Shown piece by piece: positions 1,833 through 42,949 of a stretch of DNA of 42,949 nt (position 1 is the stretch's first letter; each line of letters begins with the position of its first letter). This stretch comes from Escherichia phage ZH5. The notes below the pieces were generated by a model. The model did no database searches and was not told the origin of the DNA. It saw only the letters and a list, made by a program, of their open reading frames with translations. Where the stretch lies: sequence record OM864357.1; one strand, given 5' to 3'. A program made the position numbers and the translations under genes.

Positions 1833-1964
1833 ATGAGTGCGATGGAATTACATAAGGCAATCCTGGACGTATTGAGGGAGCTGGAGCGGGTTGACCTTCT
1901 CCCGACGGCTAGGATTGCGCTGAGTCGCTATCTCGAGCGGCTTACAACTATGAAAACTAACTAA
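1833..1964 (+). CDS. Small hypothetical protein (43 aa)
   Basis: AGGAGG RBS 5 nt upstream of ATG; below the 60-aa track cutoff; its stop overlaps the next start region. Confidence 0.45.
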   Translation: MSAMELHKAILDVLRELERVDLLPTARIALSRYLERLTTMKTN

Positions 1965-1975
1965 TGAGGTGTATT

Positions 1976-2563
1976 ATGATCAATTCAATAACTAACGCAA
2001 CCAAAAAAGTATTCAAATTAACCGCTGCTGGCAGCATTCGCAAGGCGCTGGGCGACGTGGTGGAAGCAAAACGCAATATTACTATCAGCGCTCTGTTCCA
2101 CGGCCTGATTAGTAGCAACGTTTCTTGGGCGACGGATATGCAGCGCAGCGATGCCGCTGACTTCGATATGGTGCTGCGTACACTGCTGCCCATCAAGTTC
2201 AACAAGGAATCCGGCAAGTACGAATTCCACGCTAAAAAGTGCTATGCGTCGGCTGAAAAGCTGGGCATTGAACTGGACACTATGCGTCTGGACTATAAAC
2301 AAGCTGACAAGCAAGGCCGTGAGGAGATTATTGCCAGCTTCTATAGCGCTTGCATGGCTCTGTACACTGCTGAAGCGGAGCAAGTGAAGAATGATGCCCT
2401 TGATGCCGATGCAGTGCGTCTGCAAGCTCTGGGGCGCGTTAAAAACGCCATCAAAAAAGCAAAAGAGACTGGCGTAAGCGATGCTGACCTTGTGTCTATG
2501 CTGGTATCGCAGGGCGTGGATGTACGCGCTGTACTGGATGCAACGTTGAAGGTGCCAGCATGA
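1976..2563 (+). CDS. Hypothetical early protein (195 aa)
   Basis: ORF in track from 1964; ATG at 1976 preferred because GAGGTG lies 4 nt upstream. Confidence 0.6.
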   Translation: MINSITNATKKVFKLTAAGSIRKALGDVVEAKRNITISALFHGLISSNVSWATDMQRSDAADFDMVLRTLLPIKFNKESGKYEFHAKKCYASAEKLGIELDTMRLDYKQADKQGREEIIASFYSACMALYTAEAEQVKNDALDADAVRLQALGRVKNAIKKAKETGVSDADLVSMLVSQGVDVRAVLDATLKVPA

Positions 2564-2691
2564 TTTATAAGGTTCCGGTTATCAAGTGGTGGGCGCTGTG
2601 CCCTGCGGCCAACGATGCGGACGCCTTCAACATCCCTACCCGCGGCCGTCACAACAAGTGGCGGTATGAGGGATTAGGGGAATACGTATAG
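2560..2691 (+). CDS. Small hypothetical protein (43 aa)
   Basis: ATG overlaps the upstream stop (ATGA); GAAGGTG upstream; fills an otherwise empty gap. Confidence 0.4.
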   Translation: MIYKVPVIKWWALCPAANDADAFNIPTRGRHNKWRYEGLGEYV

Positions 2692-2698
2692 TGGCAAG

Positions 2699-2726
2699 CC
2701 TATAGCGTCCTACGTGGCGCTATGTG
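2699..2726 (+). promoter_or_regulatory. Conserved intergenic hairpin, copy 2 (cctatagcgtcc / tacg / tggcgctatgtg)
   Basis: Same element as 1781-1808; a compensatory change converts an A-T stem pair to G-C. Confidence 0.5.
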
Positions 2727-2752
2727 ATTGCAACTAGCATATAGGGTTTCAA

Positions 2753-2971
2753 ATGAAAGCAATCATGATTTATCCGGGGCATGCTTTGTGGTTTGGTTGG
2801 TGCAATCAAGTACAAGAATATAACTTCTCTGTACTGATATTCTCCGACCGAGATACTGAGCAAGAGCACCCGCTGGATATAGTTGACACTAACACCGAAA
2901 TGGCGGCGCGTACTCTGCTGGACGCCGTGAATCTAGGTATCATCACCGACTGGAGGCAGTTATATGGTTGA
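2753..2971 (+). CDS. Hypothetical early protein (72 aa)
   Basis: ORF from track; weak RBS; fits the contiguous + strand gene array. Confidence 0.5.
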   Translation: MKAIMIYPGHALWFGWCNQVQEYNFSVLIFSDRDTEQEHPLDIVDTNTEMAARTLLDAVNLGIITDWRQLYG

Positions 2972-3239
2972 CGTATTCAATATTATTGTGACCAGCGCTA
3001 TGCTGGTGCTGGGCAACGATGTAAACAACCCGGTGCCCTACTGTACTGTGCAATTGCAGCAGCAATCACAGCAACCGGCGGCGCAGGAACCGTTAGCGCG
3101 TCCTGAGTATGATCTCTTTGAAGAGCCTGAGGGCGGTTGTAAAGAGCTGGGCGCGCGTATCCTTGCGGCGGTGCAGGGGCAGTACCTGGACGCCACCGTG
3201 ACACTCACTGTGGACGGTAAGAGCAATGATGAAATTTGA
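2964..3239 (+). CDS. Hypothetical early protein (91 aa, Gln-rich and acidic)
   Basis: GGAGG RBS upstream of ATG at 2964; overlaps the previous stop. Confidence 0.55.
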   Translation: MVDVFNIIVTSAMLVLGNDVNNPVPYCTVQLQQQSQQPAAQEPLARPEYDLFEEPEGGCKELGARILAAVQGQYLDATVTLTVDGKSNDEI

Positions 3240-3247
3240 GGTTGGGT

Positions 3248-3427
3248 ATGTACGGGAAGAATCCTGAAACGCTGCTGATGCGTAAGCAGCAACCAACAAT
3301 CGACGGGCTGGCGCGTGAATACAGCGCAAAAGCAGCGCTGCGTCAGCACTATGAGAAACAAGCGAAGCGCCTGGGTATGACCCTGCGCGGTTACTGCTTC
3401 CGGTTTAATGTGCGAGGTGTAGTATGA
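3248..3427 (+). CDS. Hypothetical early protein (59 aa)
   Basis: Track ORF 3236-3427 begins at TTG; the ATG at 3248 with GAGG upstream is preferred. Confidence 0.45.
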   Translation: MYGKNPETLLMRKQQPTIDGLAREYSAKAALRQHYEKQAKRLGMTLRGYCFRFNVRGVV

Positions 3428-3627
3428 ATGAACTAATTGAGTATGACTTGTACAAGAGCCAGTACGGGGTGCTGTACCGGGTGCAACTGCATAGCGCGCT
3501 GCATGAGCCTGCCGAGCTATACCTCCAAGTAGGGGATCGGTGGATTCAGTCATATGCCACAGTTGGCGATGTAGTAGCTGGGAGTGGGATTACCCTCGTG
3601 GCCCGCAACGTAGTATTCAAGGATTAA
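3424..3627 (+). CDS. Hypothetical early protein (67 aa)
   Basis: GAGGTG RBS; ATG overlaps the upstream stop. Confidence 0.55.
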   Translation: MNELIEYDLYKSQYGVLYRVQLHSALHEPAELYLQVGDRWIQSYATVGDVVAGSGITLVARNVVFKD

Positions 3628-3629
3628 AT

Positions 3630-3974
3630 ATGCTTACAGTAGACGAAACAGCGCTACTGTGTTGGCGCTTGCTAGAAACGCAGGGCAAGTGCGGGTGCCC
3701 GTGGGAAATATTCAAAGAGGTCCCTAATGAACTCAAGCAAATCGTACCGGTCGAGCGTAGACTCCTCCGAGTTCGTAAGCAGGACTCTACGGTGGTGCTC
3801 ACCGCATACCGGGAGTATACAGAATCTGCCGCGCGGAATCTGCAAGAACACATTGCATTCAATGTGGTTGCGGCGCTACAGCAGTATGGATATAGGGGAG
3901 CTTTTACGCGATTTAAATCCGCAGTGCGAGCCTATTACAAGCAGCAACAACTCTCTGCGTGGTATGCGCGCTGA
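3630..3974 (+). CDS. Hypothetical early protein (114 aa, Cys-containing)
   Basis: AAGGA RBS then ATG at 3630, immediately after the upstream TAA. The track ORF extends upstream to 3540 but overlaps the previous gene. Confidence 0.5.
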   Translation: MLTVDETALLCWRLLETQGKCGCPWEIFKEVPNELKQIVPVERRLLRVRKQDSTVVLTAYREYTESAARNLQEHIAFNVVAALQQYGYRGAFTRFKSAVRAYYKQQQLSAWYAR

Positions 3975-4014
3975 GCTTTTGATACATGATGAAATACAAT
4001 TCATTCAGGAGCAA

Positions 4015-5721
4015 ATGAAAATGCAAGAGACTAACAAAGTAACCGTAGATGCAAACGTACCTGCCTACGAGGGTTGGACCATCAAATTTCCAGAAGGGGC
4101 CAATGCTCTTCCACTGAAGGATAGTATGTACTCTTCCGGGGATTACTGGTGCCAACTTCCCTACCTATCAACTCAAGGCCGTGTGCGCGTGCAAAGTAAC
4201 AAAACCCGTGCGCTTTTGAATGGCTTTTATATGTTGTCAAGGGTGCTGCCGGGGTATATTGTAGCACTCGGCAACTTTACAGCTGCAGGAGAGGATTTGG
4301 GTAGGTTTGTTGGGCCGCTGGGCACGGTTGATGTTAGTGACACTCTCCTGCATAAGCTCTTTGACTGTGCAGGTACCTGCGACCAAGCATTCGGTTTATA
4401 TAGCAGAACCTTCTATGATGGCCCTGACGTAGTTACAGAACGCGTAGTAGAAGCGGTCCAATACTTTACCGGATACAAGGTGCACAAGCAGGCTATCGAG
4501 TTGTTCGAAGAGATTATGCTAGCACCTAAGTACTCCCTTCGGGCCAAATACCTTCGTGGGTACAGTGAGCGTGATGGAGATTACTGGGCAGCAACCTTGC
4601 TTATGCAGTTGCACGGATTTGTAGTATCTAGGTTTGCAATCCCGCTGGGTTTTGGCTTCCGAAACGGTGAGCCTGTAGTAATGCTGGGGCAGCCGCGACT
4701 GCACAAAGACTACGCCGCTGTTACTGAGTATCGCTGTGTAGAGATGCGAGCAGGCAAGTGGCTCGCTAATTATTACGGAAGCGGTGTAGACTTCCGGGAA
4801 TGTATTGAAGACCTCAAAGCTATGAACGTGGAGCCTACTACATATCTTTGTAAGACCGAGCGGGAGTGGTACTACGCATACGAGAACGGCCCTAGTAGCT
4901 GCATGACTGGATATGACTTCGAGGCTAGCCCGGTGCGTGTATATGCCACGACTAGTCACGGCTTGTCGGATAATGGGCTGCGCTTGTTCATCCAGTATAC
5001 TGGTGAACTTTTTGGCGACGACTTTAAAGTGCACGCCCGCGCTATCGTTAACATCGAAACCAACGAATACGTCCGTGCATACGGGGATGCTGCGGACGCC
5101 ATTCTACGTGCTAATGGGTATGAGCGCGATACAGACTGCTTAGATGGCGCACTACTGGCACGCATTCCGCACCCAGAGCATGATGGTGCCGTGCTTATGC
5201 CGTACTTGGATGGGAACCAAGACGGGGTAGATGAAGAAGGGGATACCGCGTTCGTTATCTGCGACTGCTACGACTATGAAGCACAGGACGCTGACGGGTA
5301 CATTTGGATGGATGATGGTCGCAGTGCTTGTGCAGAGTGTGGGGGACGTTTCGACGAGGATGACATGTACGTAGCTTGTGACGGTGGTTATGTATGCCAG
5401 CACTGTATCGGTGATACTTACGTACAGGTAGTGGGCCGCAGCGTAGTGTATCCATCATGGGATTGCTCATGGTCTGACTACCACGACTCTTGGGTACTCG
5501 ACCAGGACGTAGAAGATTGTGCTGTAGAGGGTACAGTGCATGATGAAGAGCCAATGGTGTGCGTACAAGGGTACAATGTTCTGAGTGTGCATGCCGAAGA
5601 GCACCCAGTGCACGGTATGATTCTCACGGAGTACGCTGCGTCTGTATTGGATGAGCCCTACCTCGGTAATGAAGAAGCCGAAGAAGACAAAGAAGTTAAA
5701 GCAGAACAGGAGGCAGCTTAA
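4015..5721 (+). CDS. Large early protein of unknown function (568 aa) with C-terminal Cys-rich CxxC clusters and an acidic tail
   Basis: Long ORF in track from 3727; the ATG at 4015 with AGGAG RBS is preferred (alternative ATG at 3964). CAECGG...CQHC motifs at about 5329-5406. No family recognised by eye. Confidence 0.7.
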   Translation: MKMQETNKVTVDANVPAYEGWTIKFPEGANALPLKDSMYSSGDYWCQLPYLSTQGRVRVQSNKTRALLNGFYMLSRVLPGYIVALGNFTAAGEDLGRFVGPLGTVDVSDTLLHKLFDCAGTCDQAFGLYSRTFYDGPDVVTERVVEAVQYFTGYKVHKQAIELFEEIMLAPKYSLRAKYLRGYSERDGDYWAATLLMQLHGFVVSRFAIPLGFGFRNGEPVVMLGQPRLHKDYAAVTEYRCVEMRAGKWLANYYGSGVDFRECIEDLKAMNVEPTTYLCKTEREWYYAYENGPSSCMTGYDFEASPVRVYATTSHGLSDNGLRLFIQYTGELFGDDFKVHARAIVNIETNEYVRAYGDAADAILRANGYERDTDCLDGALLARIPHPEHDGAVLMPYLDGNQDGVDEEGDTAFVICDCYDYEAQDADGYIWMDDGRSACAECGGRFDEDDMYVACDGGYVCQHCIGDTYVQVVGRSVVYPSWDCSWSDYHDSWVLDQDVEDCAVEGTVHDEEPMVCVQGYNVLSVHAEEHPVHGMILTEYAASVLDEPYLGNEEAEEDKEVKAEQEAA

Positions 5722-6755
5722 TGTATGGTGTTGACCTTAAACTACTGACAAAGATACTAACAACGCACCGACCTAGCTGGGGCAGTACCAAATGGTTTGA
5801 GCCGCTACTTAGTAGCGCTCTTGCCGGTGCAGAGCACTACGTTAGGGACGCTCATGGTAACTACTTTGTGCTAATTGGTAACTCCGAACAGAGTGATGTA
5901 GCGTTTACTTCACACCTCGATACAGTGGCCCGGCCTGGTAGTGCTGCGCCAGACATTGCAATCACTAACAAGGGTGTAATGTTCCTGCGGAATCCACAGG
6001 TGGCGGATTGTCTAGGTGCAGACTGTGGTGCTGGTATCTACCTGATGCTGGAGATGATTAGGCACGGTGTGCATGGGCGCTACTGCTTCTTCGTGGATGA
6101 GGAGGTAGGTTGTGAGGGCAGCAGAGCATCGGCCAAGGACGATACTGGCTTCTGGACTGGGGTCAAGGCAATGATTAGCTTTGACCGCCGAGGTGACGGT
6201 ATCATCACACATCAACGATACCAGCGTTGCTGCTCTGATACGTTCGCAAAAGAACTCGCGGCCCGGCTAGGGCGCACGGAAGCGCACTTACAGAAAGGAG
6301 TGTACACTGACTCTGCTGAGTTCGTAAGTATTATCCCAGAGTGCACTAACGTAGGCGTAGGGTACATGCACGAACATACTCCGGATGAGGTGCTGGACCT
6401 TAGTATTCTTGGCAGCGTACTGGAGCACGTACTCAGTCCGGGTACATTCAAGCACCTACCGATTGAACGGGATCCAAAGGTAATGGAACCAGATGCGTGG
6501 TTATCTGCCTCTGCGTATCCTTTTGATATGTCACTAGATGTTCCCCCTGCAGAGGATCCTCATTTACTAGCAGCATTCAAGGAGGTGTCACAGCTTTCTA
6601 AGCAGCAACTGATTAGTTGGGTATTGGATAACCCAGCAAGGGCCGCGGAATACATCATGGTGTATTCCGATTATGGCTTCAAAGAGGAACTGATTGAACT
6701 AGGCACCCGAGTTGTAGAAGACTGGGGCGGATACGATAATATTGTGGAGGGTTGA
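5721..6755 (+). CDS. MH-clan (M20/M28-like) zinc metallohydrolase / peptidase-like protein (344 aa)
   Basis: VAFTSHLDTV matches the M20 HxD[TV][STAV] signature; GADCGAG supplies the Asp; YCFFVDEEVG supplies the Glu-Glu; a later HEH may be the distal His. AGGAGG RBS; ATG overlaps the upstream TAA. Confidence 0.6.
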   Translation: MYGVDLKLLTKILTTHRPSWGSTKWFEPLLSSALAGAEHYVRDAHGNYFVLIGNSEQSDVAFTSHLDTVARPGSAAPDIAITNKGVMFLRNPQVADCLGADCGAGIYLMLEMIRHGVHGRYCFFVDEEVGCEGSRASAKDDTGFWTGVKAMISFDRRGDGIITHQRYQRCCSDTFAKELAARLGRTEAHLQKGVYTDSAEFVSIIPECTNVGVGYMHEHTPDEVLDLSILGSVLEHVLSPGTFKHLPIERDPKVMEPDAWLSASAYPFDMSLDVPPAEDPHLLAAFKEVSQLSKQQLISWVLDNPARAAEYIMVYSDYGFKEELIELGTRVVEDWGGYDNIVEG

Positions 6756-6757
6756 TT

Positions 6758-7237
6758 ATGCATAAGTTTAAAGTTGGTGATAAAGTAGTAGTAGGCGAAG
6801 CATGTACCGGGTTTATGGAACTATTGCAACGTACTCAAGGCGTTAAGAAGTATTACACTGTAACACACACTAGTGCTGAAGGCTACTGGCTGCAACTTGA
6901 CGGTATGGTGTGTTACGGGGACCCCGTCCCCTGGTGCTCTGAATACTTTGAGCTATACCAAGAGCCGGACGACGAGCTGCCGCCTGCACCAACCTCAGTA
7001 CTCTATTACCATAGCACTGCGGATGCAGACAACTTGCAGCATATGATAGTGCAACCACATTGGGAGTTAGAGGGACATCTCAGTATCGCTATCGTGAAGA
7101 GTGGTAAAAAGTTCGATCCCCTGGCTTACGGTGATGCATTATCCCTCAACCTGGAACCCGATGCAGCCTTGCAGTTGGCACATGACCTATGCCGCATGGC
7201 TATGGATATTAAACGTAAGGAGAAAGCAAATGCCTAA
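6758..7237 (+). CDS. Hypothetical protein (159 aa)
   Basis: GGAGG 7 nt upstream of ATG at 6758; track ORF begins at TTG 6752. Confidence 0.55.
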   Translation: MHKFKVGDKVVVGEACTGFMELLQRTQGVKKYYTVTHTSAEGYWLQLDGMVCYGDPVPWCSEYFELYQEPDDELPPAPTSVLYYHSTADADNLQHMIVQPHWELEGHLSIAIVKSGKKFDPLAYGDALSLNLEPDAALQLAHDLCRMAMDIKRKEKANA

Positions 7238-7436
7238 TAAAATTATTACATACAAAATGCCACCTAAGAGTATTGTGGTTGGAATTCCGTTCACTTGGGG
7301 GTTATGCAATGCTTGGGCTATAAAGGTGGAGGATGGTGATATGTACTATCTGGAAGGTGGTAGAATGGTGAATGAGGCCGAAGAAGAAATCTTGATGGAT
7401 GGCATAGTATATGCTAATAGTATCGAGATTAAATAA
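7230..7436 (+). CDS. Hypothetical protein (68 aa)
   Basis: TAAGGAG RBS then ATG at 7230; the track ORF from 7101 overlaps the previous gene. Confidence 0.5.
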   Translation: MPNKIITYKMPPKSIVVGIPFTWGLCNAWAIKVEDGDMYYLEGGRMVNEAEEEILMDGIVYANSIEIK

Positions 7437-42822: not shown

Positions 42823-42949
42823 GGGGGGGGGGGGCCGTCTAGACGTCTAGATGGCTAGTTGGGGGCCAGCTGGGGGCCGTCTAGGGCGCACCAGGAGGGC
42901 CGTAGAGGCTCTCTGCGCGGTCTAATGGCTATCCCTAGTGCTATCCTAT
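42823..42949. repeat. Right copy of direct terminal repeat
   Basis: Identical to 1-127; preceded by one extra G (13-G run at 42822-42834). Confidence 0.85.

Follow-up and report, generated by a model that had tools for sequence, protein, structure and literature searches.

An early-region gene pair of Escherichia phage ZH5 joins a predicted lid-less MH-clan hydrolase to a large phage protein family without known fold

Single-domain aminopeptidases of the M28 family, such as Aeromonas AAP, Streptomyces griseus SGAP, and Aspergillus LapA, consist of an MH domain without a lid, in which the ligands H, D, E, D, H are accompanied by an adjacent general-base Glu. The same arrangement is found in the product of a gene, here termed gene B, of Escherichia phage ZH5 (sequence record OM864357.1). 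The window analyzed here, 42,949 bp in length, is the entire genome of this Drulisvirus-like podophage (Autographiviridae, Slopekvirinae). Gene B and its upstream neighbor, gene A, are the two largest open reading frames (ORFs) 5' of the primase gene, and their arrangement supports the view that they form a translationally coupled module. On the evidence presented below, B is almost certainly an active hydrolase of the MH clan, as far as this can be predicted from sequence, and A is a member of a large, phage-restricted superfamily that was previously undescribed. It is very probable that the two are functionally linked. What is new here is the pan-phage association of a known hydrolase with a large, enzyme-like family without known fold, which was not found described in the literature.

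In architecture B is closest to the single-domain M28 aminopeptidases, and SGAP and LapA are among the structural matches obtained for it with Foldseek. It differs from these enzymes in sequence (13-16% identity), in being a cytoplasmic phage protein with neither signal peptide nor pro-peptide, in having an additional, poorly conserved helical C-terminus, and in being genetically paired with A. Within M20 and M42, the best structural matches were TET1 (2cf4, E=3.9e-11), PepT (3gb0, E=5.3e-11), and the catalytic domain of DapE (4h2k, TM-score 0.65). The HxD, GADD-like, EE, and D motifs are common to B and to PepT, DapE, and TET, but B lacks the dimerization/lid domain of the M20 enzymes PepT and DapE.

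Homologues of B fall into 678 protein clusters, and thus B is a real gene. The sole Pfam family above threshold was M28 (PF04389), by a small margin (24.1 bits, gathering cut-off 21.3, E=3.3e-5) and over residues 53-186 only, whereas Pfam M42 (12.1 bits, cut-off 23.2) and the NCBIfam PepT-like family (16 bits, cut-off 274) remained below theirs. The original prediction, made from the sequence alone, had read B as an M20/M28-like metallohydrolase and had proposed such profile hidden Markov model searches, together with structure prediction, as a check; both agree with it. The best sequence match in the PDB was peptidase T (3gb0), aligned in two pieces so that residues 152-302 of the PepT chain, its lid, were skipped. 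The AlphaFold2 (AF2) model of B (predicted local distance difference test score, pLDDT, 83.5) has a compact catalytic domain at amino acids (aa) 1-245, followed by a poorly predicted helical C-terminus. Foldseek retrieved 188 PDB matches at E<=0.001, headed by TET1, PepT, M42, the DapE catalytic domain, and SGAP, with E-values of about 1e-11 to 1e-8. Model and matches together give B the alpha/beta catalytic-domain fold of the MH clan.

The residues expected of an active MH-clan enzyme are retained throughout the family. H65, D67, D101, E127, E128, D155, and H219 are invariant in 45 B homologues, down to 34% identity. Conservation was also counted in a set of 188 sequences, distinct members from podophages, jumbo phages, and prophages (Table 1), in which E223 is kept in 186. 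The five ligands follow one another in the order His, Asp (bridging), Glu, Asp/Glu, His; the general-base Glu stands directly ahead of the ligand Glu (EE), and the orienting Asp is present in HxD. The motifs SHLDTV (aa 64-69), GADCGAG (99-105), DEEVG (126-130), and HEH (217-219), by which B had been recognized, indeed contain invariant ligands, but the fourth ligand, D155 (FDRRG), was missing from that list. Distant homologues align to aa ~1-260 only. D155 and H219 are separated by just 64 residues, and the M20 lid/dimerization domain is absent. A PDZ-like insert of the M42 type also appears to be lacking, as judged indirectly from the short length of B and its sub-threshold M42 score, and the 245-aa catalytic part has no space for it. 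Because the ligands are invariant, the fold matches, and the lid is skipped, B is regarded as an MH-clan enzyme without a lid and with its catalytic apparatus intact. It is most likely an exopeptidase or amidohydrolase whose open active site is able to accept peptides or protein termini.

B has a history in the literature. In phage KP34 the corresponding gene, KP34p11, has been a "putative peptidase" since 2011 (PMC3082699), and B counts among the core genes listed for KP34-like and PhiM1-like phages, together with the neighboring hypothetical proteins KP34p10 and PhiM1_09. A has no assignable function; B by itself is an ordinary hydrolase that had already been annotated. A literature search for A or B found no functional study.

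Homologues of A form 421 protein clusters, and thus A is a real gene as well. A HMMER search of 1.8 billion cluster representatives yielded 419 clusters at 50% identity, which have only residues ~240-475 in common (residue numbers of A are those of the 568-aa ORF). A had been said to match nothing recognizable, and searches of Pfam, NCBIfam, PADLOC, and the PDB (the last also with two profiles) were all empty. Likewise, Pfam detected zero domains in 80 members of the family, and Pfam and PHROGs detected nothing in the minimal A type of jumbo phages described below. The AF2 model of A is confident (pLDDT 85.6, and >95 over aa 280-550); Foldseek returned zero PDB matches for it at E<=0.001, and matches in BFVD were to uncharacterized phage proteins only.

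In this model the lineage-specific N-terminal part consists of a small beta domain, a disordered segment (aa 78-105), and a helical bundle. It has low occupancy and conservation in an alignment of 80 sequences, and is followed by the conserved alpha/beta core (the A-core). Residue conservation was counted over 110 family representatives at <=40% identity, among which a Cys, an Arg, a Tyr, and an Asp are invariant (Table 1) and no His is conserved. To judge from sequence, such a constellation would be expected in a catalytic or ligand-binding pocket rather than in a scaffold. A papain-like, NlpC/P60, or transglutaminase-type cysteine peptidase was considered for the core and rejected, given the lack of a conserved His beside the invariant C, R, Y, and D and the lack of a fold match. 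A had been called Cys-rich, which its 18 Cys in 566 aa justify only modestly; four are in the ribbon described next, and that of the SCM motif is invariant.

Behind the core, A ends in a predicted zinc ribbon (CAECGG...CQHC), a beta-hairpin array, and an acidic tail. Ribbon and tail had both been noticed originally, and C439, C442, C461, and C464 are present and conserved. Two CxxC knuckles sit on hairpins of the AF2 model (pLDDT >90), and the ribbon, a fold predicted from sequence and model, weakly resembles RBR and CPxCG zinc fingers in profile comparisons. The hairpin array gave weak, LIM-like matches only. The last 30 residues of A carry a net charge of about -8 to -9. Over the family, the final 30 aa have a mean net charge of -6.0 beside B and -4.0 in paralogues without B, compared with -0.7 in background ORFs, the family members being phylogenetically non-independent; neither tail sequences nor terminal residues are conserved. 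Ribbon, hairpins, and tail look like protein-docking elements, possibly directed toward basic, nucleic-acid-binding partners.

A zinc-ribbon protein with an acidic C-terminus is also encoded together with an M20 hydrolase in the LysW/LysK system of lysine and arginine biosynthesis in Thermus and Sulfolobus, a likeness that serves as a lead only. LysW has ~54 aa and a conserved EDWGE end, and is encoded with an ATP-grasp ligase (LysX). A was rejected as a LysW-type carrier: it has 566 aa, an unrelated conserved core, and a non-conserved tail, and the annotation of Escherichia phage Minorna contains no ATP-grasp or pathway gene. With the DNA mimics Ocr of T7 and ArdA, A has an early position and strong acidity in common, but its size is much greater, some of its polar residues form an invariant constellation, and its gene is linked to that of a hydrolase. 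This candidate was also rejected, as Foldseek found zero PDB matches for A at E<=0.001 and only acidity is shared; the GenBank label "putative DNA mimic protein" on one A homologue is unsupported here apart from acidity.

Table 1. Features of the A/B locus in the ZH5 genome, in order of position
Feature	Position	Strand	Remarks
Shine-Dalgarno GGAG of gene A	4007..4010	+	10 nucleotides before ATG 4021; kept in 7/7 aligned Drulisvirus genomes
Lineage-specific N-terminal part of A, aa 1-204	4015..4626	+	From AF2 model; low occupancy and conservation in 80-sequence alignment
Gene A	4021..5721	+	566 aa from conserved ATG 4021 (568 aa from ATG 4015); isoelectric point (pI) 4.4; phrog_6980
A-core domain, aa ~205-434, alpha/beta	4627..5316	+	Conserved; pLDDT >90
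S295-C296-M297 motif of A	4897..4905	+	C 110/110, S 107/110, M 108/110
Arg342 of A (ARA motif)	5038..5040	+	Invariant, 110/110
Tyr356 of A (YxRxYG motif)	5080..5082	+	Invariant, 110/110
P396-Y397-L-D399 motif of A	5200..5211	+	D 110/110, Y 108/110, P 106/110
Predicted zinc ribbon of A, C439-x2-C442...C461-x2-C464	5329..5406	+	Each Cys in 77-85% of 110 representatives
Short beta-hairpin array of A, aa 465-540	5407..5634	+	AF2 strands 469-537, pLDDT ~95-97
Acidic C-terminal tail of A (EPYLGNEEAEEDKEVKAEQEAA)	5641..5718	+	10 D/E versus 2 K/R
Coupling junction	5708..5723	+	AGGAGG 5708-5713, TAATG 5719-5723; A stop and B start share one base
Gene B	5721..6755	+	344 aa, predicted MH-clan di-zinc hydrolase; phrog_4191 "peptidase", PHROG E=8e-144
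B H65-x-D67 (first metal ligand and orienting Asp)	5913..5921	+	187/188 each; sole exception is a gap
B D101, bridging metal ligand (GADCGAG)	6021..6023	+	188/188
B E127 (general base) and E128 (metal ligand)	6099..6104	+	188/188 each
B D155 (fourth ligand) and R156 (FDRRG)	6183..6188	+	188/188 each
B H219, fifth metal ligand (HEH)	6375..6377	+	188/188
C-terminal helical extension of B, aa 280-344	6558..6752	+	pLDDT 45-76; poorly conserved

The ORFs at 4015-5721 and 5721-6755 overlap in TAATG, as had been described. This -1 overlap is shared by every Drulisvirus and Bucovirus locus and recurs in several distant ones. In other lineages the A-to-B junction, likewise tight, measures -8, -13, or +2 to +22 nucleotides, most loci lying between -13 and +22, with start codons chosen heuristically for this comparison. 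A is found immediately 5' of B in five genera of the Autographiviridae (Drulisvirus, Bucovirus, Maculvirus, Phimunavirus, and Kantovirus); the Kantovirus B is frameshifted. In Pseudomonas phage YMC11/06/C171_PPU_BP, the B beside A is split into two overlapping ORFs (locus L013, 5038-6050) and GenBank has small hypothetical proteins annotated there. This frameshift is either a sequencing error or the mark of a pseudogene.

The association extends far beyond related phages. Starting from B in IMG/VR, an A-like gene adjoins it in 41 of 51 non-Drulisvirus loci. Jumbo-phage contigs have the inverted order, B being followed by a minimal A of ~320 aa that comprises the NSCMR, ARALLW, MDRIY, and YPYLDTF motifs and an acidic tail, without the zinc ribbon; starting from this minimal A, B was directly upstream in all 30 of the closest loci. 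The order is also inverted in Cellulophaga phage phi38:1 (gp038 peptidase, gp037) and in Thermus phage TSP4. The B of TSP4 is flanked on both sides by A-core-like proteins (locus L100, 1929-2546 and 3830-4798). In a 735-kb megaphage (LR756501.1, 434125-442038), a single cluster of ~8 kb contains four A-like genes and two B genes, and megaphage records contain 7-14 A-like places each. In bacterial genomes A lies upstream of B at 55 of 80 B loci, alphaproteobacterial prophages included, and in the two cases examined, Xanthobacter and Shimia, the pair is 1-2 kb from a tyrosine integrase at the prophage edge. Record counts of A and B in cultured phages are nearly the same (Klebsiella 232/232, Vibrio 42/42, Escherichia 9/9, Shigella 4/4).

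Co-conservation of the pair had been named as a check on the original prediction, which was to be given up if B had no MH-clan match or geometry, or if the genes were not co-conserved and A proved mundane. Neither outcome was observed.

An "early" time of expression is suggested by gene position: the pair lies 3' of a conserved early-middle motif at 2697 and immediately 5' of the primase, helicase, and DNA polymerase genes. The region before the replication genes has been defined as early (PMC6115819), and genes gp027-036 of phi38:1, neighbors of its pair, are early (PMC5335546). A and B would be made together, before DNA replication. B would be a di-zinc hydrolase that consists of the catalytic domain only, is catalytically competent, and hydrolyzes a peptide or amide substrate. 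The A-core would provide an enzyme-like pocket with Cys, Arg, Tyr, and Asp, while ribbon, hairpins, and acidic tail would dock protein partners. Both proteins might share one substrate, on which they would work in a complex or one after the other; the likeliest purpose would be to modify or process a protein or peptide of the host (or the phage) in the early phase of infection.

As a whole, the proposal that A and B are a linked module acting on one substrate, probably in the early processing of a protein or peptide from the host or the phage, is a tentative one, although we prefer it. The evidence for joint action on one substrate, as a complex or consecutively, seems to us evenly balanced. 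That the substrate is a protein or peptide and the purpose host-directed (takeover or counter-defense) is plausible but somewhat doubtful. Modification of a host target, for example in takeover or counter-defense, had been suggested originally. The estimate for a host-directed role derives solely from the pre-replication position, the position by prophage integrases, the patchy distribution, and the expansion of paralogues.

Several observations weigh against this proposal. Exopeptidase specificity is not readable from an MH catalytic domain, and a PADLOC search with A, B, and both flanking proteins was empty at E<=0.1. The A-core superfamily extends beyond its B-linked subset: 47 more distant paralogues, of 400-570 aa, lack a B gene within 4 kb. 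Conversely, B occurs without A in ~20% of diverse loci and in Thermus phage P23-45, a relative of TSP4 that has kept only the hydrolase (gp56). In principle, then, either protein can do without the other, and the A proteins linked to B represent a subfamily. No A-B fusion was seen among the 16 long B ORFs collected. Finally, as both proteins are acidic (pI 4.4 for A, 5.0 for B), simple electrostatic docking of the A tail onto B is unlikely.

The B-less paralogues have neighborhoods of their own. In one subfamily (loci L137-L175), 11 loci have an uncharacterized protein of ~330 aa (332 aa) directly upstream and a PD-(D/E)XK nuclease directly downstream (e.g., L161 2852-3847, L174 5481-6248). 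Other B-less subfamilies adjoin a bifunctional nuclease with a UVR motif, an M50 peptidase, or a nucleotidyltransferase. Some A-core paralogues (L164 3425-5146; L142 3443-4987) have at their end a Cys-rich zinc finger of the DnaJ/BSD2 type and not the CxxC...CxxC ribbon, which suggests that C-terminal zinc modules are interchangeable in this superfamily.

Of the other explanations, one makes A the substrate or pro-protein of B, which would trim the acidic tail or the N-terminus of A and so activate or inactivate it, in the manner of glutamate carboxypeptidases on acidic tails or of the LysW/LysK release step. Many MH enzymes, such as CPG2, GCPII, and LysK, do act on Glu or Asp termini. A combines a zinc ribbon with an acidic tail, as LysW does; such tails characterize the family, more strongly beside B (see above), and several A paralogues surround B in the megaphage. 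However, B-less paralogues have acidic tails too, neither the sequence nor the terminal residues of the tails are conserved, and B is itself acidic. The annotated close relative Minorna has no ATP-grasp or other ligase partner, and the invariant Cys/Arg/Tyr/Asp pocket would be left unexplained. We consider this explanation unlikely.

Low probability is also assigned to a role in the metabolism of nucleotides, nucleic acids, or small molecules, in which A might, for example, attack a nucleotide or base as a Cys-nucleophile enzyme, while B would serve the same pathway as a deacylase or amidohydrolase. Cys, Arg, Tyr, and Asp are a constellation of the type used by enzymes that attack pyrimidine C6, and many M20 enzymes are small-molecule deacylases. 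The setting of the pair among replication and nucleic-acid genes, both here and in jumbo phages (NUDIX, PhoH, ligase, RtcB), would suit such a role, as would the PD-(D/E)XK and bifunctional nucleases next to B-less A paralogues. Against this, the annotated close relative encodes no hydroxymethylase, thymidylate-synthase-like, or other base-modification gene, and A matches nucleotide-modifying enzymes neither in fold nor in sequence. It is also strongly acidic, core included (pI 4.36 for the core alone), which is unusual for a nucleic-acid binder.

A third possibility, which we regard as improbable, is that A is a non-catalytic regulator of B, either supplying a lid in trans or placing its invariant Cys on the zinc of B as a "cysteine switch". 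B does lack the lid domain that gives M20 enzymes substrate-binding residues, thiols are classic inhibitors of the MH clan, and translational coupling implies matched production of A and B. Both forms of the idea lose weight because the 47 paralogues without a nearby B retain the same invariant residues. In addition, B would have to function without A in P23-45-like phages, and the several A paralogues per B in megaphages do not fit a simple 1:1 regulator. It is very unlikely that A and B are unrelated in function and adjacent merely by inherited synteny since, although some genomes have only one of the two genes and the flanking 114-aa and 158-aa genes are syntenic too within the Autographiviridae, the adjacency outlasts inversion of gene order and extends over podo-, sipho-, jumbo, and temperate phages of Proteobacteria, Bacteroidota, and Deinococcota, and the flanking genes do not accompany the pair outside Autographiviridae relatives.

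The preferred proposal, a linked module acting on one substrate, can be carried one speculative step further. The A-core (SCM...R...Y...PYxD) might define a new, phage-specific enzyme superfamily with a Cys nucleophile. Together with the lid-less B it would make up a previously unrecognized system, found across phages, for adding a covalent modification to a protein or peptide of the host or for removing one. This extension is itself rather doubtful. If true, the system may serve takeover or counter-defense as a functional analogue of conjugation/deconjugation pairs, and the ribbon, hairpin, and acidic-tail modules and the paralogue arrays of megaphages would supply target specificity.

Drulisvirus phages of Klebsiella, Escherichia, and Shigella are under development for therapy and have B as a core gene, and the pair recurs across lytic podophages, temperate prophages, thermophilic siphophages, and megaphages. 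The A family comprises at least 419 clusters at 50% identity and has an enzyme-like invariant constellation, with no detectable relative in Pfam or the PDB. What has been annotated as "peptidase plus hypothetical protein" thereby becomes a defined target, with the function of several hundred protein clusters at stake, and might reveal a new enzyme fold or a new strategy of host manipulation.

The start of A had been placed at 4015. The 568-aa ORF exists, but in an alignment of seven Drulisvirus genomes including ZH5, ATG 4015 is AAG or ACG in 4 of the 6 relatives, whereas ATG 4021 (MQETNK...) and the GGAG at 4007-4010 are present in all seven. Because these two elements are conserved and ATG 4015 is not, a start at ATG 4021 and a length of 566 aa are most likely.

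Many database records give A as 655-673 aa, with a start equivalent to ATG 3727 (664 aa here), and the PHROG profile has ~95 additional N-terminal positions. The extension overlaps the 114-aa gene at 3630-3974. Over 3727-3971, variability by codon position is highest at the third position of the 114-aa gene (0.59 versus 0.31 and 0.24), and overall variability exceeds that of the same gene outside the overlap, rather than falling below it. Distant A homologues of 550-575 aa (Buco, Nobby, SU503) have no such extension. The 664-aa form was rejected on both grounds, and judged from these sequences the extension is most likely an annotation artefact. Codon-position variability in the seven genomes shows no sign of dual coding in the 3727-4020 overlap. 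Nevertheless, no stop interrupts the A frame for 115-127 codons before the conserved start in any of the seven, and this open stretch (3727-4020) includes a further conserved ATG that is preceded by AAGAGG. In one Drulisvirus contig from IMG/VR (locus L034, 1935-3983), an in-frame stop splits A (1935-3623, 3627-3983) and B is intact.

The region from 3500 to 7300 matches 241 phage records. Identity is 92% with Shigella phage SFN6B and 87-92% with Escherichia phages Minorna and AV102 and Klebsiella phage KPV811. The flanking 114-aa (3630-3974) and 158-aa genes are kept only among Autographiviridae relatives, where they are syntenic, and were therefore ruled out as parts of the module. The interval from the gene at 6752-7237 to the primase is a variable homing-endonuclease slot: SFN6B has an HNH endonuclease there (locus L001, 6909-7370), and ZH5 has a different ORF of 111 aa (7101-7436) that is common to Minorna, Buco, and others.

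Scans for sigma-70 promoters and terminators gave no sites in excess of shuffled sequence. The ZH5 sequence starts with a run of 12 G, and a perfect 127-bp direct repeat occupies both genome ends (1-127 = 42823-42949). This repeat is either a terminal redundancy or, given its length of 127, a k-mer overlap from circular assembly. Upstream of the pair, a 32-nucleotide motif, AGCCTATAGCRTCCTAYGKGGYGCTATGTGAW, occurs in two copies (1779-1810 and 2697-2728) and contains the inverted repeat TAGCRyCC...GGyGCTA. It is nearly identical to a "promoter discovered using MEME" that is annotated twice in Klebsiella phage SU503, and may be an early-middle promoter of the phage RNA polymerase or a processing hairpin.

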